A DNA stretch of 64,000 nucleotides, from the NCBI GenBank assembly GCA_046712825.1, contig JBKKCR010000096.1, positions 590 to 64,589 on the forward strand, given 5' to 3'. Positions 26,240-50,243 of the stretch are shown one piece after another; position 1 is the stretch's first letter; each line of letters opens with the position of its first letter. The translations under genes and the position numbers were made by a program. The notes under the pieces were generated by a model that saw only the letters and a program-made list of their open reading frames with translations, was not told where the DNA came from and ran no database searches. The DNA comes from Actinomycetota bacterium (GTDB lineage Bacteria; Actinomycetota; AC-67).

Positions 26240-26272
26240 CCGATATGGTTCGATACCGGCGTCCTCAGCCCT

Positions 26273-28633: not shown

Positions 28634-28678
28634 CTGAGCTCGCACGATAACACCGGGTTGGGGGCGGCTGGGGGCCGA

Positions 28679-28943: not shown

Positions 28944-29777
28944 CTAGGCGATACCCCAGCCGTCGAATCCGGGCCCCATGTAGGCGCGCAGCTTCATGAT
29001 GTCGGGGCGGATCTGCGCGCGGATCCGCTCCTCGAGCTCCGCGGGGAGCTCTAGCGTGGACGTCGTCAGCGTCTTCGTGGTCACCCGGAAATGCAGGCGG
29101 CGGAGGGGAGCCGGAGTGAGCCTGGCGGCCGCGCGGTACAGACGGTTGTCGCGTATCTTTTCGATCGACTCCTTGCGGAGGTAGACCTCCCCGGTCGTGT
29201 TCGTCCGGCTCGACACCTCAGGCGGCGTCCAGCCCGGATCGACATCGAGGAAGGAGTAGACCGAGCGCATTGTCTCCACATACGAACCACGCAAGCCTTC
29301 GGTCGTGATGAGGAGGATCTGCTCGCGCGGGAAGTGACTCAGATAGTGCTCCAGTTGCCACGCGTACTGACTCGCGCGCACGTACCCGGGATGCTCACGC
29401 AAGGCCCGCTCCGGCGACCGCGACTCGCTTCCGGCGCGCAAGCGCTCCAGGTAGTGGGAGCGTAGACGCTTCATCGGGTCGCGTAACAGGTAGATGAGCT
29501 TCGCGTCCGGGATCAGGTCCGCGATCCGACCCGGCACTCCCGGATATGCATGGGCGAGTGTGTACTCCGGCGAGGCTTCTCCGATTGCCGTGGCGTCCCC
29601 AGCGCCGGCGAATTGGTCCAGGTACCAGTTCTGCCCGCGCCCCCAGTTCTTCTCCGCGATGAAATAAGCGAGCTCCTTTTCGGCCGGAGTGAAGATCTGC
29701 GGGTGGGCTCGCAGGTGGTGCCAGAGGCTGGTGGTCCCCGCCTTCATCGCGCCGATGACCAAGAAGGTCGGAAGCAT
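28944..29777 (-). CDS. Sulfotransferase
   Basis: MLPTFLVIGAMKAGTTSLWHHLRAHP...; ~50% identical to 27803..28633. Confidence 0.75.
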   Translation of the reverse strand: MLPTFLVIGAMKAGTTSLWHHLRAHPQIFTPAEKELAYFIAEKNWGRGQNWYLDQFAGAGDATAIGEASPEYTLAHAYPGVPGRIADLIPDAKLIYLLRDPMKRLRSHYLERLRAGSESRSPERALREHPGYVRASQYAWQLEHYLSHFPREQILLITTEGLRGSYVETMRSVYSFLDVDPGWTPPEVSSRTNTTGEVYLRKESIEKIRDNRLYRAAARLTPAPLRRLHFRVTTKTLTTSTLELPAELEERIRAQIRPDIMKLRAYMGPGFDGWGIA

Positions 29778-30764: not shown

Positions 30765-31591
30765 GACGACAAGTCCCTCCCGAGAAGCTGTTCGAGGCCG
30801 GCGATCTGGTCCGCGTATGCCTGGACGAGGCGGCGGCGAAGCTCGGGATCCATCGGCTCGTACGTGCTGCGGTCCGGACGCACGTTCATCGCGTTGATAC
30901 GCCAAGCCCACGAGCGCGGGATGCGACGCTTCAGGCGGGCCTTCAACACCGCCTCTCTCAGACGCACGGAGCGGACGCGCATCCGCGGATTGTAGGTCTT
31001 GCCCAGGTTGTCGGGCCGGTACCCGTCGTCGACGCCGAGGAATCGGCAGGCGTCGCCATACACGCCCGAAGCGTCCGACGCCAGATCCTCGAATAGCATC
31101 ACCATCAACGCCGAGGGCGGAAAGAGGCCGTGGAGTTTCCGGATCTGTTCCAGGTATCTGCCTCGAGCGAGGTAGAAGCCGAACGGTGGCGCCGTCCCCG
31201 CAAGCTCCTCGTCCACGACTTGAGCGAGCGGACGCTTTTCGCGGCCGATCGCACGGAGGTGGAGGAACTGCGAGTAGATCCGCTCCGCGGGATGCCGCAG
31301 GATCGCGATCATGCGGACGTCGGGCAGTAGCTTCGCCATCCGGTCCGGAACGTCCGGATGGGCCATGTACCCGGGGGTCGCCTCACCGATGGCGGGTTTG
31401 CCGGCACCGGCAGCGAACTGCGCTCGGTACCACTCTTCTCCCGCCTCGTAGCGATGAGGGTTGTCGAAGAAGTGAAGTTCCTTCTCCGAGGGGATGAAGA
31501 CCTCGGGGTGTTCGCGCAACCATGCCGCGAGCGAGGTGGTTCCGGCTTTCATCGCACCGATGATGAGGAAGTTCGGCAGCGGCGCGGTCAT
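30752..31591 (-). CDS. Sulfotransferase
   Basis: LPNFLIIGAMKAGTTSLAAWLREHP ... MIAILRHPAERIYSQF. Confidence 0.75.
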   Translation of the reverse strand: MTAPLPNFLIIGAMKAGTTSLAAWLREHPEVFIPSEKELHFFDNPHRYEAGEEWYRAQFAAGAGKPAIGEATPGYMAHPDVPDRMAKLLPDVRMIAILRHPAERIYSQFLHLRAIGREKRPLAQVVDEELAGTAPPFGFYLARGRYLEQIRKLHGLFPPSALMVMLFEDLASDASGVYGDACRFLGVDDGYRPDNLGKTYNPRMRVRSVRLREAVLKARLKRRIPRSWAWRINAMNVRPDRSTYEPMDPELRRRLVQAYADQIAGLEQLLGRDLSSWRA

Positions 31592-31604
31592 CTCGTTGCC
31601 CGCC

Positions 31605-32477
31605 TCATGGGACGCGTCCCTCGACGAACGGCACCTCGAAGACCTTGTCGTGGGCGACGGGGCCGTGGCCGAAGTATCCGTCCTCACCGAAGAGCTCACC
31701 GTGGTCGGACGTCACAACGACCCAGGTGTTGCTCGGGACGAGGTCGAAGAGCCGCTCGACGACGCCGTCTAAATAGCGGACGGCGTTGATCTGACGGTCG
31801 CGCAGCTCGGCGAGCTTCGCGTCGTCGAAGAACTCCGGTTCGCCTTCGGCGCCCGGCTGGTCGTCGAGTCGTTTGAAGACGCCGTGCACGCCCGATATCC
31901 GCGGCCAGGTCGAGGGGTCCTCATCGGGAAGCGCGTAGGGGTAGTGCGTCTCGCCGGTGTTCAACAGGTAGAAGGAAGGCCGCTCTTCCGAGAACGTCAT
32001 CTGGTCGAGCATGGCCGCCATGTCGTTGTGCTTCGGCATCAGCTCGTATGAGTCGAAGTCGCGGTTGATTGGCGTATGCCGGTTCAGAACCGGCATCGAC
32101 ACCATCGCATGCGTCGCGTAGCCGAGCTCCTTGCGAAGGAAGGTCGGCATGAAGATCGACGGAAGGAGCCGCTTGAACTCGATGCCTTGGACGCCGATCC
32201 GTTCGCTGTACCGGGTGAAGTCTTGCTTGTAGTACTCGGACGCGTACACACGAGGAGGGCTCGTATGAGGGAGGAGACCCATCAGCAAGTTGTAATGCGA
32301 CGGCGCGGTCCACGACGCATAGCTCCACCGCCGTTCGGGCTTTCCGAGGAGGCTCAGGGTCTTGGGGGAAGCGGCGACCCACGAGTCGTAGCGGCAAGAG
32401 TCGAAGATGACGACGACGAGGTTCCGCGCGCCCTCGGGGGGGCGCGGGCGTTCGGGCGCGGCTTCGGAGGGATCCAT
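31605..32477 (-). CDS. Alkaline-phosphatase-superfamily NPP/phosphodiesterase-like enzyme (second copy)
   Basis: LVVVIFDSCRYDSW, TAPSHYNLLMGLLPH (T-x-P-S-H), VVVTSDHGELFGEDGYFGHG; start at MDPSEA. Confidence 0.65.
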   Translation of the reverse strand: MDPSEAAPERPRPPEGARNLVVVIFDSCRYDSWVAASPKTLSLLGKPERRWSYASWTAPSHYNLLMGLLPHTSPPRVYASEYYKQDFTRYSERIGVQGIEFKRLLPSIFMPTFLRKELGYATHAMVSMPVLNRHTPINRDFDSYELMPKHNDMAAMLDQMTFSEERPSFYLLNTGETHYPYALPDEDPSTWPRISGVHGVFKRLDDQPGAEGEPEFFDDAKLAELRDRQINAVRYLDGVVERLFDLVPSNTWVVVTSDHGELFGEDGYFGHGPVAHDKVFEVPFVEGRVP

Positions 32478-32559
32478 CGGTCTCCAGGCTCTCGCTACAG
32501 GCACGGGGTGACCCGTCCGAGGCATTCTACCGGCGGGTTTCGACCTGCAGGGTAGGCTG

Positions 32560-33411
32560 TTGCGGTTCGGCTTCTTGATGGAGGATCGAGTGGATCGAAG
32601 CGATCGTTCCGGGCTCGCGGGTGCGAAAGTGGTCGCCCACAAGGCGCTCGCGTGGGCGAAGCGTCACGAAGCCGAGGGAGCACGAGCGATCTACGGCGCA
32701 CGCCGCGCCGCGTTCATCGCGCGGATGAAGGTCCAGGCCGCGTGGCAAGGGGCCCAGGTCGACGTCGAGGTCGCTCCCGACGTCCGATTCGGCAAGGACA
32801 TCGCGATCACGGTCTGGCCGGGCTCGCGCAACAGCATCCGCATCGGAGCGGGTTCGCGCATCGGCGACCGCGTGCTCTTCATCCTGAACGACGGACGCAT
32901 CGACCTCGGCGACAACGTCGAAGTGCGCAGGGACAGCACGTTCATGATGTGGGGGGGCTCGCTCGAGCTCGCAGGCGACAACATCCTGTCGTGGGGCAAC
33001 GTGATCCATTGCGCGTCGTCGATCCGGCTCGGCAGGATGACGTCCACCAACGAGTGGGTCACGATCGTCGACTCGAGCCACTACTTCACCACGCCCGACG
33101 AGTTCTTCTACCACAACACCAAAACCGGCCCGATCGAAGTCGGCAAGAACACGTGGATCTGCTCCAAGGCGACGCTGGCGCGCAACGCGAAGATCGGCGA
33201 TCACTGCATCATCGCGGGCAACTCGATCGTGAGCGGCGAGGTCCCCTCGGGGCACCTCGCGTCGGGCGTCCCCGCGCAGGTCGTTCGCGAGCTGGAGCTG
33301 CCGTGGAGACAGTCGGCCCCAACGCTGGTGGGCGCGACGGAACCTCGCAAGCCGGCGAAGCGCCGTCCCGCCGCGCGCAAGCCGCCGAAGCCGGCCGAGC
33401 CGACCGACTAG
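32560..33411 (+). CDS. Left-handed beta-helix (hexapeptide-repeat) acyl/acetyltransferase
   Basis: Repeated [LIV]G-x-x-x-x-[LIV] hexads: IGAGSRIGDRVLF, DLGDNVEV, IGDHCIIAGNSIVSGEVP. Confidence 0.7.
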   Translation: MRFGFLMEDRVDRSDRSGLAGAKVVAHKALAWAKRHEAEGARAIYGARRAAFIARMKVQAAWQGAQVDVEVAPDVRFGKDIAITVWPGSRNSIRIGAGSRIGDRVLFILNDGRIDLGDNVEVRRDSTFMMWGGSLELAGDNILSWGNVIHCASSIRLGRMTSTNEWVTIVDSSHYFTTPDEFFYHNTKTGPIEVGKNTWICSKATLARNAKIGDHCIIAGNSIVSGEVPSGHLASGVPAQVVRELELPWRQSAPTLVGATEPRKPAKRRPAARKPPKPAEPTD

Positions 33412-34022
33412 CTCCGCCGATCGATCTGCACGGCGGCGACCACGAAACCATCCGCCGTCGCGTAGCGAGCCGTGAAGGTCGGCGGAACCCGGGCATCGAT
33501 CGCGTGGCTCACGATCCGTCCCTCGAGCATCCCGGGACTTGCTTCGATGTACGCGACGTCCTGGAACCCAAGTCGCCTCGCGCCGAGCGGCGCGAGGGCC
33601 TTGTACGTCGCTTCCTTGACGCAGAACAGAGCGAGCAGTACATGGGGCTCGGCAAATCGCGACAGCTCTTCGGGGGTGCAGATACGCCGCGCGGTTCGCG
33701 TGTTGATGTGGCGCCCTTGGGCCTCGACGTCGATGCCCAGGCTCTCCAGTTCACCGGTGGAGGCGGTCACCGCGATCGCGACATCGTTCGTGTGGGCTAT
33801 GGAGCCGGTCAGTCCTGAGGGCCACACGGGCTCGCCGTCTGGTCCACGAGGAACGTCCGGCTGTGTCGTGCCGAGGTCCTTCATCGCGGCCGCCGCCGCC
33901 TCGCGACCGGCGACGAACGGACCGGCGCCACCGACCGCGACCACTCCGATCCCGACCGTGACCCGGAAGAGGGCACGCACGGCGTCGATGGACGGAGCAG
34001 GCTCAGAGATGGGGAGGGTCAC
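33408..34022 (-). CDS. 4'-phosphopantetheinyl transferase, Sfp/EntD type
   Basis: WPSGLTGSIAHTNDVAIAVTAS...LGIDVE and FCVKEATYKA (PPTase motifs 2 and 3). Confidence 0.7.
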   Translation of the reverse strand: MTLPISEPAPSIDAVRALFRVTVGIGVVAVGGAGPFVAGREAAAAAMKDLGTTQPDVPRGPDGEPVWPSGLTGSIAHTNDVAIAVTASTGELESLGIDVEAQGRHINTRTARRICTPEELSRFAEPHVLLALFCVKEATYKALAPLGARRLGFQDVAYIEASPGMLEGRIVSHAIDARVPPTFTARYATADGFVVAAVQIDRRS

Positions 34023-34053
34023 GGCTCAGGCCTCGAACCGTATAGTTGGCCCA

Positions 34054-34809
34054 ATGGACATACCGGGTTTGCAGCGTACCTGGGATGAGCTCGGCCGCAC
34101 CGATCCGCTCTGGGCGGTCTTGTCCTTGCCCGACAAGCGCGGGGGACGCTGGGAGCTCGATGAGTTCCTCGCAACCGGCGTCCGCGAGATCGATGAGGTG
34201 CTCGCCAGGGTGCGAGCGCTCGGGCTCGGACCGGTGCTCGGCAGGGCGCTCGACTTCGGCTGCGGCGTCGGCCGGCTCACGCAGCCACTCGCGGGCCGCT
34301 TCGAAGAGGCCACCGGCGTCGACATCGCTCCCTCGATGATCGAGCGGGCGAAGAGCATCAACAAGCACGGGGAGCGCTGCCGGTACGTGCTGAACGACCG
34401 CGACGATCTCGGGATCTTCCCCGACGGAACGTTCGACTTCATCTACTCGAGCATCACCCTGCAGCACATGCCGCGGCCGCTGATGATGACCTACGTCGCG
34501 GAGTTCATCCGACTGTTGACCCCTGCCGGCGTCCTCGTGTTCCAGCTCCCCGCGCGGCCACCTCGCACCTTGCGCAGCCGGCTGAAGCGCTTGGTGCCGT
34601 CGGTTCTTCGGACGAGGTGGCGACGTTTCCGGCACAAGCGGGGAGCGGAGGCTCGGATGCAGATGTTCTGGACCTCCCCGGAACGAGTAGCGAGACTGGT
34701 GCGCCGCTCCGGCGGGCGGATCGAGGCCGAGCAGGACGACTACTCGGCAGGCCCGGGCTGGACGGGAAAGCGATACGTGGTCCGCCGCGCCGGGGCAGCC
34801 GCGTCGTAG
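34054..34809 (+). CDS. Class I SAM-dependent methyltransferase (paralog of 49524..50243)
   Basis: LGRTDPLWAVLS...ALDFGCGVGRLTQPLAGRFEEATGVDIAPSMIERA...ITLQHMP; internal ATG of ORF 33472..34809. Confidence 0.7.
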   Translation: MDIPGLQRTWDELGRTDPLWAVLSLPDKRGGRWELDEFLATGVREIDEVLARVRALGLGPVLGRALDFGCGVGRLTQPLAGRFEEATGVDIAPSMIERAKSINKHGERCRYVLNDRDDLGIFPDGTFDFIYSSITLQHMPRPLMMTYVAEFIRLLTPAGVLVFQLPARPPRTLRSRLKRLVPSVLRTRWRRFRHKRGAEARMQMFWTSPERVARLVRRSGGRIEAEQDDYSAGPGWTGKRYVVRRAGAAAS

Positions 34810-36784: not shown

Positions 36785-38533
36785 TCATGCCGATGCTGCG
36801 CTGGGCTCCCCGGATCCGATGTAGCCCTCACGCTCGAGGTGCAACACGATCTGCTGGGCGGCTTCCTCAGGCGTGAGCTCGGTGGTATCGATCGTGATGT
36901 CGGCGTCCACGGGCTCCTCGTATGGATCCGAGATCCCGGTAAACTCCTTGAGGATCCCGGCGCGGGCCTTGGCGTAGAGCCCCTTCCGGTCGCGCTCCTC
37001 GCAGATCTCGAGCGGCGTCGCGACGTGGATCAGCACGAACCCGCCCATCGGCTCGATCATCCCGCGCACCTCTTTGCGGATGCTGTCGTAGGGCGCGATC
37101 GGGGCACAGATCGCTATGCCGCCGTTCTTGGTGATCTCGGACGCCACATAGCCGATGCGACGGATGTTGATGTCGCGATGCTCGCGGGAGAAGCCGAGCT
37201 CCGAAGACAGGTTCTTGCGAACCAGATCCCCATCGAGCATCGTGACCGGCCGCCCGCCCATCTCGAGGAACTTCACGAACAGCGCGTTCGCGATCGTCGA
37301 CTTCCCCGATCCCGACAGCCCGGTGAAGAAGACTGTGAGTCCCTGCTTGTGCCGCGCCGGATGCGTCTTGCGTAGCTCGGTGACGACCTCGGGGAACGAG
37401 AACCAGCTCGGGATATCGCGACCGTCCCCGAGCCGTTCGCGCAGCTCGGTTCCCGAGATATCGAGCACGCGCTCGCCTTCGGGCACCTCGTCCTCGGGGA
37501 AGTACGTGTCCCGGTCGGGCACGTAGAGCATCTGGCGGAACGGCACCATCCCGACGCCCAGTTCCTCCTCGTACTTCCGGAGCAGGTCCTGCGCGTCGTA
37601 GGGGCCGTAGTAGGGCGTTCCCTCGGGATCCTTGCCCGGTCCGGCGTGGTCGCGTCCCACGATGAAATGGGTGCAGCCGTGGTTCTTGCGGATGATCGCG
37701 TGCCAGACGGCCTCACGCGGTCCGGCCATGCGCATCGCCAGCGGCAGCAACGCCAGCTTCGCCGAGTACGACGGATAGCGATGCATGAGCGCCTCATAAC
37801 AGCGGACGCGTGTGTAGTGGTCGACGTCGCCGGGCTTGGTCATCCCGACCACCGGGTGCACGAGTAGGTTCGCCTCGAGCTCCTTGGAGGCGCGCAGCGT
37901 CAGCTCGAAATGCGCGCGGTGCATCGGGTTCCGCGTCTGGAACGCGACGATCTGCCGCCACCCCAGTCGCGAGAACTCCTCTCGGAGCTGCCGTGGCCCG
38001 AGGCGAAGTCCCGTGTAGTCGTAATGGATCGGCAGTTGGAGCCCCTCGATCTTGCCGCCAACGAACCACGCGTGCGTGCGGTCGGCCAGGTGCCCGACGC
38101 CGGGATGAGAGGTGTCGGTGTTTCCGTACACCTGCTCTGCCTCGGCCATCCGATCCGGCTTCCACACGTCGGTGATGTGGAGGACGGCGAGCATGACGCC
38201 TTCGGGATCCCGCAGCGCGAGCGCAGCGCCCGACCCGAGGCCCTTCGCGACGTCCTCGGTGACGTCGAGCACGACGGGGATGGGCCACAGCGTGCCGTCC
38301 GCCAAGCGCATGCGCTCGCAGACCTCCCGATGGTCCGCCTCCCCCATGAACCCCTCAAGCGGAGAGAAGCCGCCGGTGAGCAAGAGTTCCAGGTCGCAGA
38401 TCTGGCGGGGGGTCAGGTCCCAGGACGGCCATTCGCGGGAGGCGACCTTGAGCTGTGCCGAGCGGTTCTCGTCGGTCATGAGGTCGACGAGGCTGCCGCC
38501 GTGGGGCGGGATGAGATGGTCTTGGGCGCTCAC
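36785..38533 (-). CDS. Bifunctional sulfate adenylyltransferase (ATP sulfurylase) / adenylylsulfate kinase = PAPS synthase
   Basis: N-terminal sulfurylase (QTRNPMHRAHFEL, HFIVGRDHAGPG) plus C-terminal APS kinase (GLSGSGKSTIA Walker A, DGDLVRKNLSSELGFS). Confidence 0.85.
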   Translation of the reverse strand: MSAQDHLIPPHGGSLVDLMTDENRSAQLKVASREWPSWDLTPRQICDLELLLTGGFSPLEGFMGEADHREVCERMRLADGTLWPIPVVLDVTEDVAKGLGSGAALALRDPEGVMLAVLHITDVWKPDRMAEAEQVYGNTDTSHPGVGHLADRTHAWFVGGKIEGLQLPIHYDYTGLRLGPRQLREEFSRLGWRQIVAFQTRNPMHRAHFELTLRASKELEANLLVHPVVGMTKPGDVDHYTRVRCYEALMHRYPSYSAKLALLPLAMRMAGPREAVWHAIIRKNHGCTHFIVGRDHAGPGKDPEGTPYYGPYDAQDLLRKYEEELGVGMVPFRQMLYVPDRDTYFPEDEVPEGERVLDISGTELRERLGDGRDIPSWFSFPEVVTELRKTHPARHKQGLTVFFTGLSGSGKSTIANALFVKFLEMGGRPVTMLDGDLVRKNLSSELGFSREHRDINIRRIGYVASEITKNGGIAICAPIAPYDSIRKEVRGMIEPMGGFVLIHVATPLEICEERDRKGLYAKARAGILKEFTGISDPYEEPVDADITIDTTELTPEEAAQQIVLHLEREGYIGSGEPSAASA

Positions 38534-38729: not shown

Positions 38730-39575
38730 GTGGGACACCAGATGGCCTCAGTTCCGGTCGAACAAGGGTTCGAGCTGCGCGGAGAGCGCAGCCGCTTGTC
38801 CACGCTCGTTCGCGACCTGTGGCGCTCTCGCGAGCTCGTCATCATGCTGGCGCGCAAGGACTTCTTCGTCCGCTACCGCCGCGCGTCGCTCGGAATCATC
38901 TGGGCCATCGGCCTTCCACTCGTCCAGGCGTCCGTCTTCGCCTTCGTCCTGAGTCAGTTCGCTCGGTTCGAGACACCCATCCCCTTCGCGGTCTTCGTTT
39001 TCTCGGGCGTCCTTCCGTGGAGCTTCTTCAACAACGCGGTGACGATGGGTACCACCTCGATCATCGACGGGTCGGCGCTTGCGACGAAGATCTACTTCCC
39101 GAGGGCTGTCTTGCCGCTCGTAACGGTCTTCTCGGGTTTCTACGGACTGATTATCGGCATCGTGGTCATGGTCGCGATGGCCGGCGCATTCGGCGCGCCG
39201 CTCGGCCTTCCGCTGCTCCTCCTGGTGCCGGCGATGGCGCTGCTCGTACTGCTCGCTTCCGGATTCGCTCTGATCCTGGGAGCGCTCCAGGTCTACTTCC
39301 GCGACATCAAGCACGTGATAGCGGCGATCACGCTGCCGTGGTTCTGGGCCTCCGGCGTCTTCTACCCCCAATCGGTCCTGAGTGAGGACTTCCGCCGCCT
39401 GATAGCGATCAATCCTGCGGTCGGGATGATCTCGCTTTTCCGAGCCGCGATCGGCTCCGCCCCCGCCGGCTGGGAGACGAGCGTCTTTTGGTCGATCGGC
39501 TGGGTCGTTGCGTTGTTCGTCCTCGCGGCCGTTCTGTACCGGCGCTGGGACCGAGTATGCGTGGATCTCCTGTGA
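38730..39575 (+). CDS. wzm: ABC-2 type polysaccharide exporter permease (Wzm/TagG-like)
   Basis: LWRSRELVIMLARKDFFVRYRRASLGIIWAIGLP (ABC-2 signature), 6 TM. Confidence 0.8.
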   Translation: MGHQMASVPVEQGFELRGERSRLSTLVRDLWRSRELVIMLARKDFFVRYRRASLGIIWAIGLPLVQASVFAFVLSQFARFETPIPFAVFVFSGVLPWSFFNNAVTMGTTSIIDGSALATKIYFPRAVLPLVTVFSGFYGLIIGIVVMVAMAGAFGAPLGLPLLLLVPAMALLVLLASGFALILGALQVYFRDIKHVIAAITLPWFWASGVFYPQSVLSEDFRRLIAINPAVGMISLFRAAIGSAPAGWETSVFWSIGWVVALFVLAAVLYRRWDRVCVDLL

Positions 39576-39600: not shown

Positions 39601-40845
39601 ATGACGCAGCGCGGCCGCGTCCATCTCGACGATGCCGGAAAGCGGTACGTCAAGTACGACGACGTCCCTCTTCTGCTCACCCGCGCGTTGCGTTTCCGCG
39701 CGGGGCACAAGAAAACCCATCTCTGGGCGGTCCGGCATGTAAACCTGATGGTAGAGCCTGGGGAGACCGTCGGCGTCATCGGACGCAACGGCTCGGGAAA
39801 ATCCACGATGTTGCGGATGCTCGCCGGGGTAACGGCCCCGACGGAGGGGGTCGTGACCGTTCACGGGCGCGTCGCGCCGCTCATCTCCGTCGGCGTGGGT
39901 TTCCACCCCGAGCTGACCGGACGCGAGAACGTGTACGTCAACGCGACGGTGCTCGGCATGCGGCGTAAAGAGATCGACCAGCTCTTCGATTCGATCCTCG
40001 AGTTCTCCGAGATCGAGAATTTCATCGACACCCCCGTCAAGTTCTACTCGTCGGGGATGTTCGTGCGACTCGGCTTCGCCGTCGCGGTCGCTGCGCGGCC
40101 GGACGTGCTCCTGATCGACGAGGTGCTCGCCGTCGGCGACGTCGCCTTCCAGGCCAAGTGCTTCGACCGCATGGAGGAGATCCGCAGTCAGGGGACGAGC
40201 GTGCTCGTCGTCAGCCACAACCTGAACGCCGTCCGGCTGCTGTGTAAAAGGACCCTCGTTCTGCACAACGGCGAGATGAAGTTCCTCGGCGACACCGATG
40301 CGGCGATCTCCCTGTACCACGAACTACTCGCGGTCCCCGTCGAGGAGCCGTCCGAGCCGGGCAACCAGGCGGCTCCCGTCCGGATCGAATCGTTCGCCAT
40401 GGTGGGGGAGAACGGGCTGGCGACCAACCATGTGAAGTTCGGTGAGGACGTGGCCTTCGTGCTCGAAGCGGAATTCCTGGCCGCCGTGCCTCGCCCGGCC
40501 TTCTCGTTCGTCCTCGCCAACGAGAAAGGCCAGATCGTCTACTCCGACGACGCGCACAACGCGGAGTTCCAGCGCTCATACCAGGCGGGAGAACGGGCAC
40601 GGTTCGAGGCGAGGATCCGAGCTACCCTTCCGACCGGCACATACAAAGCGCGCTGCGCGGTTCGATGGAAGGTCGGCGAAGAGGTCGACCGCGCCGCGCG
40701 CTACGTCACCTTCTTCGTGTCGGGGCGTCCGTTGGTGAAAGGCCTCGCCGATCTCGAGGCGGCGTTCACGGTTGAAGGAGGGTCGTCGGCCCTCACGGAG
40801 GCCGAGGCGACGCCGGTCGAACCGCTCGAGTCGGACGCGGGGTAG
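39601..40845 (+). CDS. wzt: ABC exporter ATPase (Wzt/TagH-like) with C-terminal carbohydrate-binding (Wzt_C-like) domain
   Basis: GVIGRNGSGKSTMLRMLAG, LSGG-equivalent YSSGMFVRLGFAVA, D-loop; ~190-aa C-terminal beta-rich extension. Confidence 0.8.
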   Translation: MTQRGRVHLDDAGKRYVKYDDVPLLLTRALRFRAGHKKTHLWAVRHVNLMVEPGETVGVIGRNGSGKSTMLRMLAGVTAPTEGVVTVHGRVAPLISVGVGFHPELTGRENVYVNATVLGMRRKEIDQLFDSILEFSEIENFIDTPVKFYSSGMFVRLGFAVAVAARPDVLLIDEVLAVGDVAFQAKCFDRMEEIRSQGTSVLVVSHNLNAVRLLCKRTLVLHNGEMKFLGDTDAAISLYHELLAVPVEEPSEPGNQAAPVRIESFAMVGENGLATNHVKFGEDVAFVLEAEFLAAVPRPAFSFVLANEKGQIVYSDDAHNAEFQRSYQAGERARFEARIRATLPTGTYKARCAVRWKVGEEVDRAARYVTFFVSGRPLVKGLADLEAAFTVEGGSSALTEAEATPVEPLESDAG

Positions 40846-41029: not shown

Positions 41030-42478
41030 ATGCGCGTGCGATATCGGATCGGGGCAGTCGTCGCCGTACTTGCTTTGCTTGTCACCGCCATGGGCATTCC
41101 ATCGGCGACGGCGAGTGGCAGTCCATATGTGACACGGCTCCGGGTCGAGCTGTCGGGAACCAGCGACTGGCAATACCTCCGTATCTCCGACAGCGGGATC
41201 GCCAGCTACCACCCAGACGTCCTCGCTTCGGGCACGACGGTAAGCCGTGGCCCGAACACCATGCTCATCGCCGGTCCGGGATACCAGAACGTTTCGGCGA
41301 CGATCAGCATGGTCGTGGAGACGTACAACGCGAACTCGTTCAACGTATCGCTGGTTAAAGGCAAGATCGGCGAAGCCCATATGAAGCTCTACCGGCTCAA
41401 CGACTCCACGCCCGTACAGATCCTGAGCTTGAACAACTACGAGACCAGCGGCGATGCGACGGTTTCCGCCACCGTCTCGCGGGCGACGCTGGTAGCCAAC
41501 GGGTACACCATGCCGCGTATGGACCCTCGGCGTCTGGTTCTCTCTTTCTACTACCCCTGGTTCGGTGAAGGCTCGTTCGACAAGGGACCCTGGTACGACA
41601 CTCCGACGGGACCCTACGACACCAAGAAACCCAGCGAGGTCTCCAAGATCGTGGCCCAAGCCCACTACGCGGGCGTCGACGGCTTCGTCGTGTCCTGGGA
41701 CGACGTCGGAGATCACACCGCCGCGTTCGACCTCGCGATGAATGAGCTCGCGACCCGTTCGATGTACGTCTCCCCGGTGATCGAGCTGCTCATGTTCAAG
41801 ACGTCCTCGGGAGCTTTCGACGTGCCGAAGATCATCGACACGATGAAGAAGGCGCTCCAGCGCTCTTCCAACCCCGCGTTCTTGAAGGTCGGCTCGCGGC
41901 CCGTGCTGTGGACCTTCGGGATGTGGGAGATGGACGTTCCGACCTGGACTGCGATCCGCGCCGCGGTGGTCTCCGCCGGATACAACCCCTTCTTCATAGG
42001 CGAACCCATGTCGACGGAGTGGGGATTGGACGGCACGTACTACTACACCCCGAACGGCATGACGTACGACGGCATCGTCTCGAAGTTCAGCCAGATCAAG
42101 CGTCAGCTGCGTTACGACGCGCAGGTGAACCCGCTCGTCAAGCAGCGCCTGTGGGCGGCACCGGTGTCCCCCGGCCAGAACCTGTCGTACACGTCGCCGC
42201 TGTTCCCGCAGCATCAGGACCGTAAAGACGGGGAGCGCTACGACCAGACCTGGAGTGCGGCCCTCACCTCGGAGCCCGAATGGATGCTCGTCACTTCGTG
42301 GAACGAATGGTTCGAAGCGACGCACATCACCCCGAGCGAGAAGTTCGGATCGAGGGCACTCAACCAGACGGCGGCGTGGAGCGATGCTTTCCACAACCCG
42401 CAGCCTTGGGGCCAGGGGGAGAGCCAGGGTGGCTTCTTGCCCATCAACCTCCCGCTGAAATTCGGCCCGGGCAAGTAG
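41030..42478 (+). CDS. Secreted GH99-like protein, copy 2
   Basis: Signal peptide; RRLVLSFYYPWFGEG...VDGFVVSWDDVGDH...WMLVTSWNEWFEATHITP; paralog of 14059..15540. Confidence 0.55.
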   Translation: MRVRYRIGAVVAVLALLVTAMGIPSATASGSPYVTRLRVELSGTSDWQYLRISDSGIASYHPDVLASGTTVSRGPNTMLIAGPGYQNVSATISMVVETYNANSFNVSLVKGKIGEAHMKLYRLNDSTPVQILSLNNYETSGDATVSATVSRATLVANGYTMPRMDPRRLVLSFYYPWFGEGSFDKGPWYDTPTGPYDTKKPSEVSKIVAQAHYAGVDGFVVSWDDVGDHTAAFDLAMNELATRSMYVSPVIELLMFKTSSGAFDVPKIIDTMKKALQRSSNPAFLKVGSRPVLWTFGMWEMDVPTWTAIRAAVVSAGYNPFFIGEPMSTEWGLDGTYYYTPNGMTYDGIVSKFSQIKRQLRYDAQVNPLVKQRLWAAPVSPGQNLSYTSPLFPQHQDRKDGERYDQTWSAALTSEPEWMLVTSWNEWFEATHITPSEKFGSRALNQTAAWSDAFHNPQPWGQGESQGGFLPINLPLKFGPGK

Positions 42479-42773: not shown

Positions 42774-43328
42774 GTGATCGCCGCGGGCATCGCGGCCGCC
42801 TCGGTTCTTCGCCAGCCGGCCCGCTATTCGAGCCGCGCAGTGCTCGTCATCGACCAGCCGGGGCTCATCGCGAGGAGCTTGAGCGAGGGCGTTCTCGTGA
42901 AGCTCAACCAGCTTCGAACGAAGTACGCGCTTTTGGCCAGGACCGTGCAAGTAACCAAGCCCGTCGCCGATAAGACCGGCTTGCCCCCGGGTCTCATCGC
43001 CGGCGCGATCAACGTGTCCTTACCGGGCCCGTCGCTGATCATGGTGGTGGAGGCAAAAACCGGACAGCCGCCCATCTCGCGGGTCGTGGCTGATGCGACG
43101 GCCGAGCAGCTGGTCGCGTTGGTGAAAGCCGAGCAGGACGCCGCCAAGCCGGCCATCGCTCCGGAGTCTCGGATCCTATTGACGATCGCAGCCCCGGCTC
43201 AGCCCGGCGTCAAGATCCTGCCAACCCGTGATCGAGCGATGATGGTCGGAGCTCTCTGGGGCGTCCTCGCCTTTGCGGGCACGATAGCTTTGGTCGAAAC
43301 CTTCGGAGCCATGCGCAGAAGACGTTGA
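42774..43328 (+). CDS. Small Wzz-like (chain-length-regulator/PCP-like) bitopic protein; true 5' end uncertain
   Basis: YSSRAVLVIDQP (Wzz N-terminal motif) after a TM; C-terminal TM MMVGALWGVLAFAGTIALV plus RRRR. The open frame extends back to 42504 (Pro/Ala-rich stretch then a TM) but the first canonical start is GTG 42774, inside the TM. Confidence 0.45.
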   Translation: MIAAGIAAASVLRQPARYSSRAVLVIDQPGLIARSLSEGVLVKLNQLRTKYALLARTVQVTKPVADKTGLPPGLIAGAINVSLPGPSLIMVVEAKTGQPPISRVVADATAEQLVALVKAEQDAAKPAIAPESRILLTIAAPAQPGVKILPTRDRAMMVGALWGVLAFAGTIALVETFGAMRRRR

Positions 43329-45145
43329 TCTCGATCCTGGTCGGCGTCGCGATAGCGCTTCTCCTCGCCCGCTATCTCGTGCGGGCTTCGATAAAGGTTG
43401 CGCTCGTCGCTCTGCTGGCGACAACCCTTCTTCTCACCGGGAAGGTACTCGTCCCCGGGTCTTCATCGGGCTACACCACATTCCACCGGATCGTGCTCGG
43501 GATCTTCGTGCTCAACATCATCAGGAAGGTCGCGTTGAGACAGATCCCCCTGTCCGTCCTTTCGCCCAACCGTCTCACGATCGCGCTCGCTGGCTGGGTC
43601 GTACTCTCGTTCTCCATCGGCGTGGCTCTTGCCGATCCGACGATCTCGGTCAGCTTCTCGACGTACCTGTGGGTCTTCGTCGTGGACTACGGCGTGTTCT
43701 TCTACTTCGTGGTCGCGGCGCTCCGCGCGATTGACGACGTGTGGTGGTTCGCCCGGGTGCTCGCCGGGCTGATAGTTCTTTCGGCCGGCATCGCCGTGTA
43801 CGAACATTACTTCGGAGTGTCGGTCGCCCGGTGGTTGTCGAGGCTCATCCGTGGGCCCGGGTACCTCGGGGTCCCCGCGCTCGGGAGCCGTGGTGGCGAG
43901 GTCCGCGCCCAGGCGGGGTTCGAATTTCCGCTCGCCTACGCCTGGGCGGCTACGGCAACGCTGCCTTTGGTCGTCGTCGTCGCTTCTCGGGCCCGCCACT
44001 GGATAGCGCGTTTCGCCCCGGCTCTCGCCGTCCTTGCGGTGGCTTGGACGTACACCCGCAGCGCGTACATCGGTGTCGCAGCCGCCGGCCTGCTCCTGCT
44101 TTTGACGTCCGGCTTCGATCGCAGGATCGCCGGCATGGTCATAGCGGGAGTAGCCGTCGTCGGACTCGCGATCTCGGTCACTCCGGTGCTGAACCGCACG
44201 TTCTCGTCACCCGAGGTCTCTGGGTCGACCGAGGTCCGGGAAGAGCGGTTCCCGCTCGTTCTCTCGTCGGCTGCGGAGCGCCCCTATGTGGGCCGCGGTC
44301 TCTCGTCGGCCGTCGAGCAAGGGATCCTTGTGACGGATTCCACGTTCTTGCTCGTGTACGCGGAGATGGGTGTCGTCGGGATCACCGGGCTCGTGTTGTT
44401 GATGCTGGCCACGGTTTGCTTCGTCGCCCCTGCCATGCGCGCACCCTCACCCGACCGGCTCTTAGGAGCGGCCGCATTCTGTGGGGTGCTTCTCGGGATC
44501 GCGTCAGGAGCGTTCCTCGACACGTTCAACGTTTCGGGATCTGCGCGGGTGTTCTGGGCGATGGCTGCGCTCGGCGTCGTCGTGGCCGAGCGAGCCGGTG
44601 TTCGATGGCCGATCGCGCAAGGGAGGCATCTCCTCACGCGGGCATGGATGCCGGCGGTGGCCGTGGCCGCCGGGTTCCTCCTCATCGCGAACACCGCTCC
44701 GAGGTCGTCGCAGGTGATCAGGTTCACGACCCGGTCGCCGACCTTCGAAGCCGCCTCCCTGGGACCTGCGCCGTTCATCGGGACCATGCTCGTCAATACG
44801 ACGTGCGAGATCTTCGAGACCCGAGTGGCGACGGCCGGCCACAAGGTGACGTGCTACGACCTGCAGAGCGGATTGGGGATAGGAGACGTTCGTATCGAGG
44901 CGCCGGATGCCGCGTCACTCACCCGGGTTACGCTCTCCGCGGCAACGGTGGTGCGTCGCCTTCTCGGGAGTCCTCGCTTCTATCTGCTGGAGGCCGACTA
45001 CAGCGTTCGTCCGACGTGGGTCCGGACCGCCCCGGTGTGGATGGGGATCGCCGGCGGGGCCCTGGCGGTTCTCGTACCTCCGCTGCCGCCCGTCCGCCGC
45101 CGATCCCGCGTGCGCGGGCCGGTCGCGACACCGCTGCCTGCGTAG
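43325..45145 (+). CDS. O-antigen ligase/polymerase-like (Wzy_C family) polytopic membrane protein with ~200-aa C-terminal extra-membrane extension
   Basis: 10-12 TM; WTYTRSAYIGVAAAGLLLLL region; TTG start in TTGA overlap with the upstream stop. Confidence 0.65.
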   Translation: MISILVGVAIALLLARYLVRASIKVALVALLATTLLLTGKVLVPGSSSGYTTFHRIVLGIFVLNIIRKVALRQIPLSVLSPNRLTIALAGWVVLSFSIGVALADPTISVSFSTYLWVFVVDYGVFFYFVVAALRAIDDVWWFARVLAGLIVLSAGIAVYEHYFGVSVARWLSRLIRGPGYLGVPALGSRGGEVRAQAGFEFPLAYAWAATATLPLVVVVASRARHWIARFAPALAVLAVAWTYTRSAYIGVAAAGLLLLLTSGFDRRIAGMVIAGVAVVGLAISVTPVLNRTFSSPEVSGSTEVREERFPLVLSSAAERPYVGRGLSSAVEQGILVTDSTFLLVYAEMGVVGITGLVLLMLATVCFVAPAMRAPSPDRLLGAAAFCGVLLGIASGAFLDTFNVSGSARVFWAMAALGVVVAERAGVRWPIAQGRHLLTRAWMPAVAVAAGFLLIANTAPRSSQVIRFTTRSPTFEAASLGPAPFIGTMLVNTTCEIFETRVATAGHKVTCYDLQSGLGIGDVRIEAPDAASLTRVTLSAATVVRRLLGSPRFYLLEADYSVRPTWVRTAPVWMGIAGGALAVLVPPLPPVRRRSRVRGPVATPLPA

Positions 45146-48287: not shown

Positions 48288-49399
48288 GCGGTCCGGTGCG
48301 CGGCCGTCGCGGAACCGGCACGCTCGATCGCGCGGGCGTAGATCGCACGGATGCGCGGGACCACGGCTTCCGTCGTGTGGTGCGCAAGCGCGTACCGACG
48401 GCCGGCCTCGCCCAGCCTCCCGGCGAGCTTGTCGTCGTCTAGGAGCCGGTCTATCGCGGTCGCGAGCGCCTCGGCCGACTCCGGCGGTACGACCAGCCCA
48501 CCGTCGCTGCGGTCGACGAACTCCCGGAGCGCACGGTCGTCGCTCACCACGACCGGCCGCCCGAGCAACGCGGCTTCGATCACCGTGATGCCGGCGCCTT
48601 CGGGGCGTAAGCGCGGGATGGCCGGAGCGACGAGCGTGCGCGCACCTGCCATGAGCGCGCGCACGGCATCCTCGTCGAGCCTCCCGAGCATCTTGACGCG
48701 GTCGCCGAGCGGAGCGGCGAGTGCGGCCAAAGCAGCCGACTCGGAACCATCCCCGGCGATAAGGAGCCGCGCAGAGGGGTGCCTGCCGGCGATCCGTCCG
48801 AACGCAGCGACGGCGATGTGCGCGCCCTTGTCGCGGCTGAGCCGTCCGACGAAGACGACGTCCGTCGCGGTCCCGACCGGCGCAGGCTCCTCCGTCGGGT
48901 TCGGAGCGAAGACGGGAACGTGCTCGACGTCTGGGAACCCGGCTGCGCGCAGGCGGTGCGCGATCTGTTCGGAGACCGCGGTCGCGACGTGGATGCGGCG
49001 GCGCGCCACGCGGGTGTCGAGAGCCCCTTTGAGGCGCCCTGCGGCCGAGCGGAGGCCGCGGGCACGGTCGTCGGGCACACCGAACAACCGAAAGTCATGG
49101 ACGGTCAGAACGTTCGCGGTGCCCGCCGGGACGCCCAAGACCGAGGCGGAGAGCTCGCGAAGGACGTTGTGATGGTGGACGACGTCGGGCTTGAAGTGAG
49201 CGGCAACCCGGGTGAGCGCGCGACGGGCGAACGGATCCCACGCGTCGAGGAGGCGGCCGATGCCTCGATGCTCCACTTCGCCGGCGAAAACCACGACCTC
49301 GTCGCCTGCGCTCCGCAACCCGTCGAGCAAGCGGCCGGCATAGATCTCGGCGCCCCAGCCGGCGCCGAGCGGGAGGTCGTTCACGAAGAGGATGCGCAT
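48284..49399 (-). CDS. Glycosyltransferase family 4
   Basis: MRILFVNDLPLGAGWGAEIY...EGAGITVIEAALLGRPVVVSD. Confidence 0.8.
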   Translation of the reverse strand: MRILFVNDLPLGAGWGAEIYAGRLLDGLRSAGDEVVVFAGEVEHRGIGRLLDAWDPFARRALTRVAAHFKPDVVHHHNVLRELSASVLGVPAGTANVLTVHDFRLFGVPDDRARGLRSAAGRLKGALDTRVARRRIHVATAVSEQIAHRLRAAGFPDVEHVPVFAPNPTEEPAPVGTATDVVFVGRLSRDKGAHIAVAAFGRIAGRHPSARLLIAGDGSESAALAALAAPLGDRVKMLGRLDEDAVRALMAGARTLVAPAIPRLRPEGAGITVIEAALLGRPVVVSDDRALREFVDRSDGGLVVPPESAEALATAIDRLLDDDKLAGRLGEAGRRYALAHHTTEAVVPRIRAIYARAIERAGSATAAHRTA

Positions 49400-49523
49400 C
49401 GTCTGCGGCAGGGCCGCACGGTCAACCTACCAGGGCCGTCACCCGAGCCGGGCTTGCCTCGATGCTGCGGCTAACCGTCCCGAAGGGTCCTCCGCCGTCT
49501 CGGTCGAATACGCTGAACCCTCT

Positions 49524-50243
49524 ATGGTTTCCCTGCGCAGGATCCAGAAGGACTGGAACGAGTTCGGGAAGACCGATCCGTTGTGGGCCGTGATCACCGC
49601 CGAGGGTACGCGCGGTGGCAAGTGGGATGCGGACGCGTTCTTCGAGACCGGACGGACCGAGATCAGCCAAGTCATGCAAGTGATCGACGGGCTGGGTGTG
49701 CCGGTCGGGAGGGCGCGAGCGCTCGATTTCGGCTGCGGGGTCGGCAGGCTCTCGCGGGCGCTCGCCGATCATTTCGCGGAAGTCGTGGGGGTCGACATCG
49801 CGCCGTCCATGATCGAGCTTGCCAACAAGATGAGCTCCGTCGACGGCCGGTGCACGTACGTCCTCAACGAGTCGGATGAGCTCCGCATGCTTCCGACCGA
49901 CTCCTTCGACCTGGTTTACTCCAACATCACGCTCCAGCACATGCCCCCGCGCTACGGCTGCCGCTACCTTGAGGAGTTCTTGCGGGTCACGCGGCCCGAA
50001 GGATTGATCGTGTTCGAGCTGCTTCGCCCTCCGGACAGTCGCTACCGAAGGGCTCGAGCCTTCGCGGGCCACATCAGGAACCAGCTCATGAGACGGCCGT
50101 CGATGCACGCCTACTGGATGACTGGCCGAGCGGTTCGAAGGTTCTTCGATGGTCGAGGTGCTACGGTCCTCGACGAGGCGAACACGTATCACGACGGATA
50201 CGCCCAGCGGGTCAGGTACTGCGTCGCGCCTGCGCGGACCTAG
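49524..50243 (+). CDS. Class I SAM-dependent methyltransferase (paralog of 34054..34809)
   Basis: FGKTDPLWAVIT...ALDFGCGVGRLSRALADHFAEVVGVDIAPSMIELA...ITLQHMP. Confidence 0.7.
   Translation: MVSLRRIQKDWNEFGKTDPLWAVITAEGTRGGKWDADAFFETGRTEISQVMQVIDGLGVPVGRARALDFGCGVGRLSRALADHFAEVVGVDIAPSMIELANKMSSVDGRCTYVLNESDELRMLPTDSFDLVYSNITLQHMPPRYGCRYLEEFLRVTRPEGLIVFELLRPPDSRYRRARAFAGHIRNQLMRRPSMHAYWMTGRAVRRFFDGRGATVLDEANTYHDGYAQRVRYCVAPART

Follow-up and report, generated by a model that had tools for sequence, protein, structure and literature searches.

The window, by which we mean the whole stretch of 64,000 nucleotides of DNA from an uncultured soil actinobacterium that was analyzed, contains a locus of about 42 kb around an adjacent wzm-wzt gene pair (Table 1). 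The locus encodes 13 glycosyltransferases (GT2/GT4), and Pfam analysis bears out the five methyltransferases and five sulfotransferases counted in an earlier note on this DNA. That note had also delimited the wzt ORF correctly. An alternative ORF that starts with TTG at position 39508 would encode 445 aa and overlaps the end of wzm (39575); the residue range 250-445 that the earlier note gave for the C-terminal extension of Wzt was taken from this longer ORF.

Table 1. Features of the wzm-wzt locus, in the order of their positions in the window
Feature	Position	Strand	Evidence and remarks
Methyltransferase MT1	15431-16333	+	Pfam Methyltransf_11 4e-19; translationally coupled to MT2
Methyltransferase MT2, 377 aa, candidate chain-capping O-methyltransferase	16330-17463	+	Pfam; ATG overlaps MT1 stop codon
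Alkaline-phosphatase-superfamily protein, cytoplasmic	19866-21374	-	Pfam Sulfatase 3.5e-25 and Phosphodiest; W-T-L-P-S-H motif
Methyltransferase MT3	21292-22038	-	Pfam partial domain match; 88% identical in L087
Sulfotransferase ST1, TPST/Stf-like, ~165-aa C-terminal extension	24968-26272	-	Pfam Sulfotransfer_3 6e-27; PDB TPST and Stf-like matches
Sulfotransferase ST2	26863-27792	+	Pfam Sulfotransfer_3/_1; KSGTT and RHPGHRAYS motifs
Sulfotransferase ST3	27803-28843	-	Pfam; PAPS motifs
Sulfotransferase ST4	28944-29777	-	Pfam; PAPS motifs
Sulfotransferase ST5	30752-31711	-	Pfam; PAPS motifs
Second alkaline-phosphatase-superfamily protein	31605-32663	-	Pfam Sulfatase 2.8e-11; NCBIfam STM4013-family hydrolase below cut-off; W-T-A-P-S-H motif
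Methyltransferase MT4	33466-34809 (stop-to-stop ORF)	+	Pfam Methyltransf_25 5e-19; conserved part from near 34054
Bifunctional PAPS synthase (ATP sulfurylase and APS kinase)	36785-38533	-	Pfam ATP-sulfurylase 3.5e-86, APS_kinase 6.5e-57, PUA_2 2e-51
wzm, ABC-2 permease, 281 aa, multi-span membrane protein	38730-39575	+	Pfam ABC2_membrane 1.5e-15; hydrophobic segments
wzt, 414 aa	39601-40845	+	ATG at 39601; stop codon ends at 40845
wzt nucleotide-binding domain, residues 1-245	39601-40335	+	Includes hinge helix ...ISLYHELL
wzt carbohydrate-binding domain (CBD) core, residues ~259-392	40375-40776	+	Pfam Wzt_C, AF2 model, Foldseek
wzt acidic C-terminal tail, ending PLESDAG and stop codon	40777-40845	+	Shared ending PLESDA[GVR]; pLDDT 75-81
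GH99/GH71/WbsX-like glycoside hydrolase, secreted or membrane-anchored	41030-42478	+	Pfam Glyco_hydro_99 2e-13; N-terminal hydrophobic segment
Small membrane protein	42774-43328	+	Hydrophobic segments near both ends; chain-length-regulator-like topology
Wzy_C (O-antigen-ligase-like) polytopic membrane protein	43325-45145	+	Pfam Wzy_C 9e-10; ~14 hydrophobic segments; conserved in related loci
Methyltransferase MT5	49344-50243	+	Pfam Methyltransf_11 1.5e-19
WbaP-like polyprenyl-phosphate sugar-1-phosphate transferase (initiating enzyme)	50269-51783	-	Pfam Bac_transf 3e-66; TM segments

The ATG of wzt follows the end of wzm, its direct upstream neighbor, after 25 nt, and in all related loci the two genes are likewise adjacent, with Wzm proteins that are 41-55% identical. 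The ATPase domain of Wzt matches Pfam ABC_tran over residues 45-175 (E = 4e-20) and is 61-73% identical to its counterparts in these loci; in the alignment, His240 occupies the position of the hinge residue Tyr233 of Aquifex aeolicus Wzt. Aquifex WzmWzt (8DKU, 7K2T) is the best whole-protein match in the PDB (phmmer, E = 1.3e-66), with an alignment that spans residues 11-320 and that, with a family profile, extends to the C-terminus, reaching residue 394 of 404. Domain order, hinge helix and the adjacent Wzm are shared with Aquifex. Since the host is an actinobacterium, however, the product is not an LPS O antigen, and the substrate, unlike that of Aquifex, is predicted to carry sulfate. The mycobacterial galactan exporter Wzm-Wzt (RfbD/RfbE, 9QFX) and TagGH/TarGH also have ATPase domains that are homologous to that of the window (1e-40 to 1e-55; phmmer against the PDB, 1e-51 to 1e-55 for TagH/TarH), but these actinobacterial and Gram-positive ABC exporters of lipid-linked polymers lack a Wzt_C domain. 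[quoted passage not shown] No Wzx flippase was found when all ORFs of the locus were scanned with family profiles, which leaves Wzm-Wzt as the only exporter of the locus. NCBIfam provided no equivalog for any key protein of the locus, as no score came anywhere near its cut-off.

The extension beyond the ATPase domain, for which a length of about 190 aa and the character of a carbohydrate-binding module had been proposed, is shorter than that (169 aa, residues 246-414), but its proposed character was confirmed. It consists of a beta-sandwich core of about 135 aa and an acidic tail of 22 aa, the PLESDA[GVR] ending of which is common to the proteins of the window, L081/P0001, L082 and P0002. Pfam Wzt_C (PF14524) matches residues 260-385 (E = 3.8e-14; 53.3 bits versus a gathering score of 30.4) and is covered from position 10 to 143 of its 143 positions. 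The structure prediction that the earlier note had suggested for comparison with the Wzt_C fold, run here as a monomer model, gave a confident all-beta CBD fold (AF2, pLDDT 89, pTM 0.81), which is neither disordered nor of a non-CBM type. The top 17 PDB matches of this model in Foldseek were all CBDs of Wzt proteins (E = 2e-8 to 2e-6), and the next non-Wzt fold matched 1000-fold more weakly. These CBDs belong to the methyl-cap system of Aquifex, which gave the best fold match (6O14, 8DKY and full-length Wzt), to the Kdo-cap system of Klebsiella O12/Raoultella terrigena (5HNO/5HNP), which gave the lowest rmsd (2.5 A), and to E. coli O9a (2R5O); the CBDs of Klebsiella O3 and O7 have the same fold. 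The match is not due to chance, since the copy in the related locus L082 (74% identical) evolves under purifying selection (dN/dS of 0.18 for the CBD versus 0.06 for the ATPase domain). This also rules out the possibility that the CBD is a decaying remnant. A near-invariant G381-x-x-D384-L385 motif precedes the last strand and is compatible with C-terminal strand exchange, and by analogy to the solved Wzt proteins the CBD is presumably a strand-swapped dimer. Searches with the CBD alone yielded 3 matches in a word-indexed database (4 with a 20-sequence profile), a full HMMER scan yielded 80 matches that were mostly fragments, a metagenome scan with a subfamily profile yielded 2 loci, and a six-sequence profile had no match among the PDB sequences.

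In Aquifex, the CBD dimer and the hinge helix hold the capped end of the chain as long as no nucleotide is bound, and ATP binding makes them release it (PMC9445017). That export in the window is gated by a terminal cap, as the earlier note had proposed, can fairly be inferred because this domain reads a cap at the chain end in every studied case (PMC11231755, PMC9445017), and cap-gated export by the Wzt CBD is thus well supported by homology. The terminator machinery of the known systems was not recovered to match: a crude home-made heptad scan of all locus proteins detected no coiled-coil segment of more than 30 residues that could serve as a ruler, and WbdD was absent both from the PDB sequence matches and from the top 50 fold matches of MT2. 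The window locus differs in this respect from E. coli O9a/Klebsiella O3, where the CBD reads a methylphosphate, an anionic cap whose synthesis takes two steps (PMC11231755); no WbdD-like kinase-methyltransferase was found, and an anionic group would come from PAPS rather than from ATP. The beta-Kdo cap that WbbB provides in Klebsiella O12/Raoultella is a further precedent for a negatively charged cap, but the locus showed neither a Kdo transferase nor genes for CMP-Kdo. The missing coiled-coil terminator would suit a scenario without gating, in which the CBD binds internal sulfated repeats or merely tethers the substrate while chain length is set by another factor, for instance the small membrane protein with its chain-length-regulator-like topology, which is conserved along with the Wzy_C protein across the locus family. 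Considering that every studied CBD-bearing Wzt reads a terminal epitope and needs its CBD for export (PMC11231755, PMC9445017), we regard this scenario as very improbable. As to the chemistry of the cap, for which the earlier note had considered a methyl or a sulfate group, the sequence provides indirect evidence for both.

The capacity of the locus for sulfation is clear. All five sulfotransferases scored above the Pfam threshold and have intact PAPS-binding motifs, which were sought as a 5'-phosphosulfate loop (K/R-x-G-T) and a 3'-phosphate motif (R-x-x-x-x-R-x-x-S). ST2 to ST5 carry GAMK[AS]GTT with R[HD]P..R...S, and ST1 carries GARRSGT with RDGRDVARS. The PAPS synthase gene is divergent from wzm and has a counterpart at the same position in L082 (95% identical), and L085 has a homologous fragment in the vicinity of wzt. 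Neither a TM segment nor a signal peptide was found in the sulfotransferases, the methyltransferases or the alkaline-phosphatase-like proteins, which indicates that the glycan is modified in the cytoplasm before export. The latter proteins match the Pfam family Sulfatase, but in both of them W-T-L-P-S-H or W-T-A-P-S-H replaces the C/S-x-P-x-R formylglycine motif, and their NCBIfam scores are far below the cut-off. They are therefore probably no sulfatases, and a role as true cap-editing sulfatases is ruled out by the missing motif. Their Thr-x-P-S-H nucleophile motif is typical of phosphotransferases and phosphodiesterases, and six Acidimicrobiia-type loci have such genes immediately upstream of wzm; homologues of the 19866-21374 protein adjoin wzm in L001, L004, L005, L010, L013 and L083. 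These proteins could accordingly be thought to provide a phosphate-containing cap, possibly methylated like the O9a methylphosphate and bound by basic residues of the CBD. However, their presence does not track these residues (L005, L010 and L013 encode such proteins, but their Wzt lacks the R351/W356 pair described below), genes for synthesis of a donor were not seen, and both genes of the window are 7-18 kb away from wzm. We consider a phosphate cap extremely improbable.

Aquifex Wzt binds a 3-O-methyl-mannose or -rhamnose cap with L300, T346, A348, W362 and H350, in a pocket that also includes T344, V380 and the hinge residue Y233 (PMC9445017). From a sequence alignment at about 15-20% identity, the residues L300, T344, T346, A348, H350, W362, V380 and Y233 are predicted to correspond to V304, K349, R351, A353, R355, R364, K380 and H240 of the window Wzt. 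Together with W356, the seven CBD residues make up the putative pocket. The hydrophobic methyl pocket of Aquifex is thus not conserved, and V304, R351, A353, R355, R364 and H240 stand in its place. Among 70 family members, only the window clade has Lys or Arg at all of the positions 349, 351, 355, 364 and 380; the basic residues are kept in L081, L082, P0002 and P0003. Overall, the CBD core carries no net charge (17 K/R versus 17 D/E). Each of the three informative lineages, namely the window clade, L001/L004 and L085, has sulfation genes along with a signature of R351 plus W356, whereas such genes occur in 1-2 of 9 lineages with other pocket types, although this signature was set post hoc, after the data had been seen, and the lineages are few and phylogenetically clustered. 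Arg351 alone is ruled out as a marker of sulfation, because L012 and L091 carry it without nearby sulfotransferases. The predicted binding face, which is unusually rich in positive charge, may read a sulfated chain end.

A sulfate ester could even be both the terminator and the export ticket, for instance if ST1 blocked the hydroxyl needed for elongation, with methylation playing no role. The basic pocket and the PAPS synthase gene beside wzm agree with this idea, as do the positions of sulfotransferase genes in related loci: in seven Mycobacteriales-type loci, wzt is immediately followed by an ST1-like gene, and L081 has a sulfotransferase gene two genes downstream of wzt. Yet the Wzt proteins of the Mycobacteriales-type loci retain an Aquifex-like pocket (T351, S353 and H355, with the hinge Tyr), so that adjacency of a sulfotransferase gene does not predict a basic pocket. 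Moreover, the heptad scan found no sulfotransferase with a ruler or terminator-like architecture, and the literature searched holds no precedent. Overall, termination by sulfation appears decidedly unlikely.

The methyltransferases provide a different candidate for the chain stopper. MT2 combines an N-terminal helical hairpin (22+39 residues) with a class I SAM methyltransferase domain and a conserved C-terminal part (AF2 model built with database homologues, pLDDT 90.8). It is the most conserved tailoring enzyme of the locus family (55-81% identical across related loci), with 623 homologues in a database search. Its gene is located directly upstream of wzm in L003, L008, L015 and L021 and overlaps the wzt stop codon in L086, but it is separated from wzt by 21 kb in the window and by 10 kb in L090/L092. 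An overlap of wzt with the gene of a capping enzyme is also known from the S-layer glycan (slg) cluster of Geobacillus stearothermophilus NRS 2004/3a (PMC2943079). The fold neighbors of MT2 include the sugar O-methyltransferases RebM and AtmM, but since the matches are generic class I methyltransferases, the fold does not settle a terminator role. MT1 and MT2 are paired in L087 and L089 as well; the possibility that they represent one frameshifted gene is ruled out, as they are separate in L003 and L010 and form an ATGA-overlapping pair in L087 and L089. The L082 counterpart of MT4 shows 73% identity, beginning at query residue 197.

The conservation of MT2, its frequent contiguity with wzm-wzt and its resemblance to sugar O-methyltransferases, together with the methyl pocket retained by the Mycobacteriales-type relatives, would fit a classical methyl cap, which MT2 or another methyltransferase adds and the CBD reads, as in Aquifex, E. 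coli O8 or the S-layer glycan of Geobacillus; no other cap is known from as many systems (PMC9445017, PMC2943079). The sulfates would then merely decorate the backbone, and the basic residues would serve elsewhere, for example by contacting the ATPase domain or the membrane. In the window clade, however, Arg, Ala, Arg and Arg replace Thr, Ala, His and Trp of the methyl pocket, and this change tracks sulfation-rich loci. Moreover, because five sulfotransferases modify the chain before it is exported, sulfate is likely to be present on its last residues; these would be in contact with the CBD, which in Aquifex reaches about three terminal sugars (PMC9445017). We therefore rate a purely methyl-based cap as unlikely.

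The model that we tentatively favor, while giving it rather less than an even chance, combines both modifications: a sulfated terminal sugar would be the epitope of the CBD, an O-methyl group added by MT2 would most likely stop the chain, and export would be cap-gated. It builds on the observed fold, homology and gene content, the cytoplasmic nature of the tailoring enzymes and the purifying selection on the CBD. The WbaP-like transferase would start the glycan on polyprenyl phosphate, and the 13 glycosyltransferases would build it in the cytoplasm, where it would be O-methylated and also sulfated by the five PAPS-dependent sulfotransferases, with PAPS from the dedicated synthase encoded beside wzm. 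The gating, the pocket mapping and the chemical nature of the epitope are inferred. Once the chain is complete, the CBD beta-sandwich would bind its modified non-reducing end, on the face that holds the cap in Aquifex Wzt, and this binding would license ATP-driven export. The sulfated terminal sugar would be held by K349, R351, R355, R364 and, from the partner protomer, K380, together with Trp356. Terminal sulfation would be the alternative to the O-methyl group as the stopper. After export, the ligase-like Wzy_C protein would probably hand the glycan over to an acceptor. Two observations on MT2 speak against this model: MT2 is much better conserved than the CBD, which would be odd for a domain that simply reads its product, and its gene is distant from wzt in the window and in L090/L092. 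The Geobacillus slg cluster is a Gram-positive precedent with the same list of parts, as it has a methyl cap, Wzm/Wzt, the WbaP-like initiator WsaP and the Wzy_C-type transferase WsaB (PMC2943079). It differs in that its methyltransferase is fused to rhamnosyltransferases (WsaE) and that sulfation is lacking, and no gene for an S-layer protein was recognized in the window.

Sulfated polysaccharides of bacteria are rare and sought after. To our knowledge, the established export tickets of glycans made by ABC-transporter pathways comprise methyl, methylphosphate and Kdo, and each of them comes from work on Gram-negative bacteria. If a sulfated chain end is indeed read by a basic pocket, this would be a new checkpoint chemistry and would extend such checkpoints to Actinomycetota. 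The literature that we searched contains no paper that ties Wzm/Wzt to a sulfated glycan. The specific claim that the export ticket consists of a sulfate ester carried by the terminal sugar, which would make this the first sulfate-reading CBD of a Wzt protein and the first ABC-transporter-dependent pathway shown to produce a sulfated cell-surface glycan, we consider unlikely as it stands; the named pocket residues make the idea of sulfate reading directly testable with one recombinant domain. In any case, the locus is a compact toolkit that comprises a PAPS synthase, five sulfotransferases and an exporter which has to cope with polyanionic cargo, and its family is common in soil metagenomes (more than 600 homologues of the marker MT2), the group being widespread, uncultured soil Actinomycetota.

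Some further genes accompany this core. The small membrane protein has no Pfam or NCBIfam match, and its gene is conserved beside the Wzy_C gene in related loci. An acyl-carrier protein that could pair with the phosphopantetheinyl transferase was searched for and not found. The gene for the GH99-like hydrolase is located directly downstream of wzt, and it occupies the same place in L081 and L082.

With coding frames assigned from third-position G+C in a window of 63-72% G+C, wzt was read from an ATG at 39601 to a stop codon ending at 40845, which yields a protein of 414 amino acids and agrees with the coordinates in the earlier note. The residue numbering up to 445 in that note stems from an alternative TTG start at 39508, which gives a longer reading that runs over the end of the upstream gene; alignments with wzt homologues begin at residues 1-9 of the ATG form. 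Pfam assigned an ABC ATPase domain to residues 45-175 and Wzt_C (PF14524) to residues 260-385 (53.3 bits, curated cut-off 30.4), and identified the upstream gene as an ABC-2 permease, i.e. Wzm. The closest solved relative of Wzt is full-length Aquifex aeolicus Wzt (E = 1.3e-66), to which the family profile aligned up to the end of the Aquifex carbohydrate-binding domain. The carbohydrate-binding domain (CBD) that the earlier note had proposed for the Wzt C-terminus was confirmed: neither disorder nor a non-CBM fold was found, and the model of residues 246-414, based on an alignment of 72 sequences, is confident and all-beta (pLDDT 89, pTM 0.81). All 17 top PDB matches of this model are Wzt carbohydrate-binding domains (E 2e-8 to 2e-6), including the Aquifex domain in its apo and 3-O-methyl-mannose-bound forms, the Kdo-cap domain of Klebsiella O12/Raoultella and the E. 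coli O9a domain, the next fold class being about 1000-fold weaker. The CBD is under selection, with a dN/dS of 0.18 (0.06 for the ATPase part) between the window and the close metagenome relative L082. We show that wzm and wzt encode a genuine exporter whose Wzt carries a Wzt_C domain, in itself a routine annotation, and that their locus is equipped for glycan sulfation and methylation before export.

Features of the glycan locus and its surroundings
Coordinates	Strand	Feature	Remarks
1860-4544	+	894-aa ORF	strong coding signal; no Pfam match
14053-15540	+	GH99/GH71/WbsX-like protein	N-terminal hydrophobic segment; after DUF4012 gene
15431-16333	+	methyltransferase MT1
16330-17463	+	methyltransferase MT2	ATG overlaps MT1 stop codon (ATGA, 16330-16333)
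19866-21374	-	alkaline-phosphatase-superfamily protein	Pfam name 'Sulfatase'
24280-24900	+	small protein, two hydrophobic segments	no family match; conserved in-locus in L087, L089, L090/L092
31605-32663	-	alkaline-phosphatase-superfamily protein	Pfam name 'Sulfatase'
33408-34025	-	4'-phosphopantetheinyl transferase	conserved in L082
38730-39575	+	wzm
39601-40845	+	wzt
40777-40842	+	acidic 22-aa tail of Wzt
41030-42478	+	GH99/GH71/WbsX-like protein	N-terminal hydrophobic segment; directly after wzt, always so in closest relatives
42774-45145	+	small membrane protein and 606-aa Wzy_C protein
53780-56251	+	823-aa ORF	strong coding signal; no Pfam match; right edge of locus, before cupredoxin and PQQ-propeller genes
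		bifunctional PAPS synthase	divergent from wzm

Scanning every plausible ORF with Pfam placed the glycan locus at about 12.2-54.2 kb. To its left lies a branched-chain amino-acid ABC transporter, and to its right are unrelated redox and topoisomerase genes. The locus encodes a WbaP-like transferase for initiation, 13 glycosyltransferases of the GT2/GT4 families, a hexapeptide acyltransferase and, at the left border, a DUF4012 protein; the five sulfotransferases and five methyltransferases counted previously were recovered. Since no Wzx-type flippase is present among these ORFs, Wzm-Wzt is the only exporter of the locus. Membrane segments and signal peptides are absent from all sulfotransferases, methyltransferases and phosphatase-like proteins of the locus, and both PAPS-binding motifs are intact in all five sulfotransferases; sulfation and methylation should therefore precede export, with the lipid-linked chain still in the cytoplasm. 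Both GH99-like proteins are probably extracytoplasmic glycan trimmers or releasers. As GH99 enzymes are endo-alpha-mannosidases or mannanases, their genes hint at a mannan-like backbone. The small membrane protein, which has no family match, and the ligase-like Wzy_C protein are conserved together throughout the locus family despite the ABC-transporter pathway; no LytR-CpsA-Psr gene was seen, nor did a motif search reveal an acyl-carrier protein gene to match the 4'-phosphopantetheinyl transferase.

The CBD is rare and evolves fast: among 5.8 billion clustered proteins, only three close homologues were found, and a full HMMER scan gave 80 representatives at E<=1e-3. All 21 related loci in species-representative genomes come from uncultured Acidimicrobiales, Frankiales, Mycobacteriales or unclassified Actinomycetota, and share 61-73% identity with the window in the ATPase domain but only 27-37% in the CBD. 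The nearest loci, L081 and L082, keep the gene order PAPS synthase, wzm-wzt-GH99. Identity between L082 and the window is 95% for PAPS synthase and 93% for the ATPase domain, compared with 80% for Wzm and 74% for the CBD, and the GH99 protein shares 55-69% with the nearest loci. Divergence thus falls on those proteins that presumably contact the glycan, a pattern shared with hypervariable O-antigen loci.

By alignment, the positions of the Aquifex cap pocket and hinge (PMC9445017) appear to correspond to V304, R351, A353, R364, R355, K380 and H240 of the window Wzt, with K349 and W356 alongside. Hydrophobic and polar residues alternate along strand 346-355, so that K349, R351, A353 and R355 lie on the exposed face, which in the model would be the one bearing the Aquifex pocket. 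Lys or Arg at all five positions 349, 351, 355, 364 and 380 was found, among 70 family members, only in the clade of the window, and the basic residues are conserved in L081, L082 and the database homologues P0002 and P0003; the CBD core has a neutral net charge. A reduced signature, R351 plus W356, occurs in two further lineages: L001/L004, with four sulfotransferase genes each, and L085, with a PAPS-synthase fragment near wzt. Where the pocket is of another type, sulfotransferase genes are mostly absent within 10 kb (L002, L003, L005, L010, L012, L091 and L092). Sulfation genes accompany three of three lineages with the signature versus 1-2 of nine informative lineages with other pocket types, an association that we regard as suggestive only because the signature was defined post hoc and the lineages are few. 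The acidic Wzt tail ends in PLESDA[GVR], an ending restricted to the clade whose pocket is fully basic (window, L081, L082, P0002); speculatively, it could fold back and mimic an anionic ligand.

The two 'Sulfatase' proteins carry W-T-x-P-S-H at the site of the formylglycine motif, which is C/S-x-P-x-R in formylglycine sulfatases, and are probably not sulfatases. Judged by their sequences, they look like cytoplasmic Thr-nucleophile phosphotransferases or diesterases of the alkaline-phosphatase superfamily. Such proteins often abut wzm in Acidimicrobiia-type loci, lying directly upstream of it in six, which speaks for a phosphate-type cap; because the distribution of these proteins does not follow that of the basic pocket, we consider such a cap a minor and highly improbable alternative.

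Among the tailoring enzymes of the locus family, MT2 is the most conserved (55-81% identity across related loci; 623 database homologues, over 120 clusters of which reach an identity of at least 63%). Its gene is the immediate upstream neighbour of wzm in L003, L008, L015 and L021. In L086 it overlaps the stop codon of wzt, just as the capping-enzyme gene does in a Geobacillus S-layer cluster (PMC2943079). The MT2 model (pLDDT 90.8) combines an N-terminal helical hairpin with a class I methyltransferase body, among whose fold neighbours are the sugar O-methyltransferases RebM and AtmM; no kinship to WbdD, the E. coli O9a terminator, was detected. An Aquifex-like pocket (T351, S353, H355 and the hinge Tyr) persists in Mycobacteriales-type relatives, and a methyl cap may therefore be ancestral. 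Together with the conservation and gene position of MT2, this speaks for recognition of methyl only. A simple pairing of MT2 with the CBD is, however, countered by the far better conservation of MT2, by its distance from wzt (21 kb in the window, 10 kb in L090/L092) and by the sulfotransferase gene that also directly follows wzt in Mycobacteriales-type loci. We regard methyl-only recognition as rather unlikely. In nine Mycobacteriales-type MAG loci (L008, L009, L011, L014-L017, L019, L021), MT2, wzm, wzt and the sulfotransferase gene form a tight module. The MT1-MT2 coupling recurs in L087 and L089; a long ORF at 15583-17463 is an artefact, an open alternative frame over MT1.

Judged by its homology, the CBD probably reads the chain end and thereby licenses export, as the earlier note had envisaged for a methyl or sulfate cap, and binding without gating seems very unlikely. 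We tentatively propose, at somewhat below even odds, that the epitope would include a terminal sugar that carries sulfate and is bound by the basic cluster, the chain being likely stopped by an O-methyl group that MT2 adds; sulfate itself as the terminator is a still less likely option than methyl alone. The caps known so far are methyl, methylphosphate and Kdo, and literature searches turned up nothing that connects Wzm/Wzt with sulfated glycans; the novelty lies in the basic pocket and in a cargo predicted to be sulfated. In studied systems the terminator belongs to a protein that bears a coiled-coil ruler (PMC11231755); no such ruler was detected in the locus proteins by a crude heptad scan.

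L087 and L089 share the left border of the locus, beside liv genes, and differ further in. Compared with window positions 4400-12200, they show that the locus occupies a fixed chromosomal site in relatives, adjacent to ABC transporter genes of the liv type; one 265-kb scaffold ends inside the locus. The fixed site, the conserved left arm and the variable middle resemble a hypervariable surface-glycan island.
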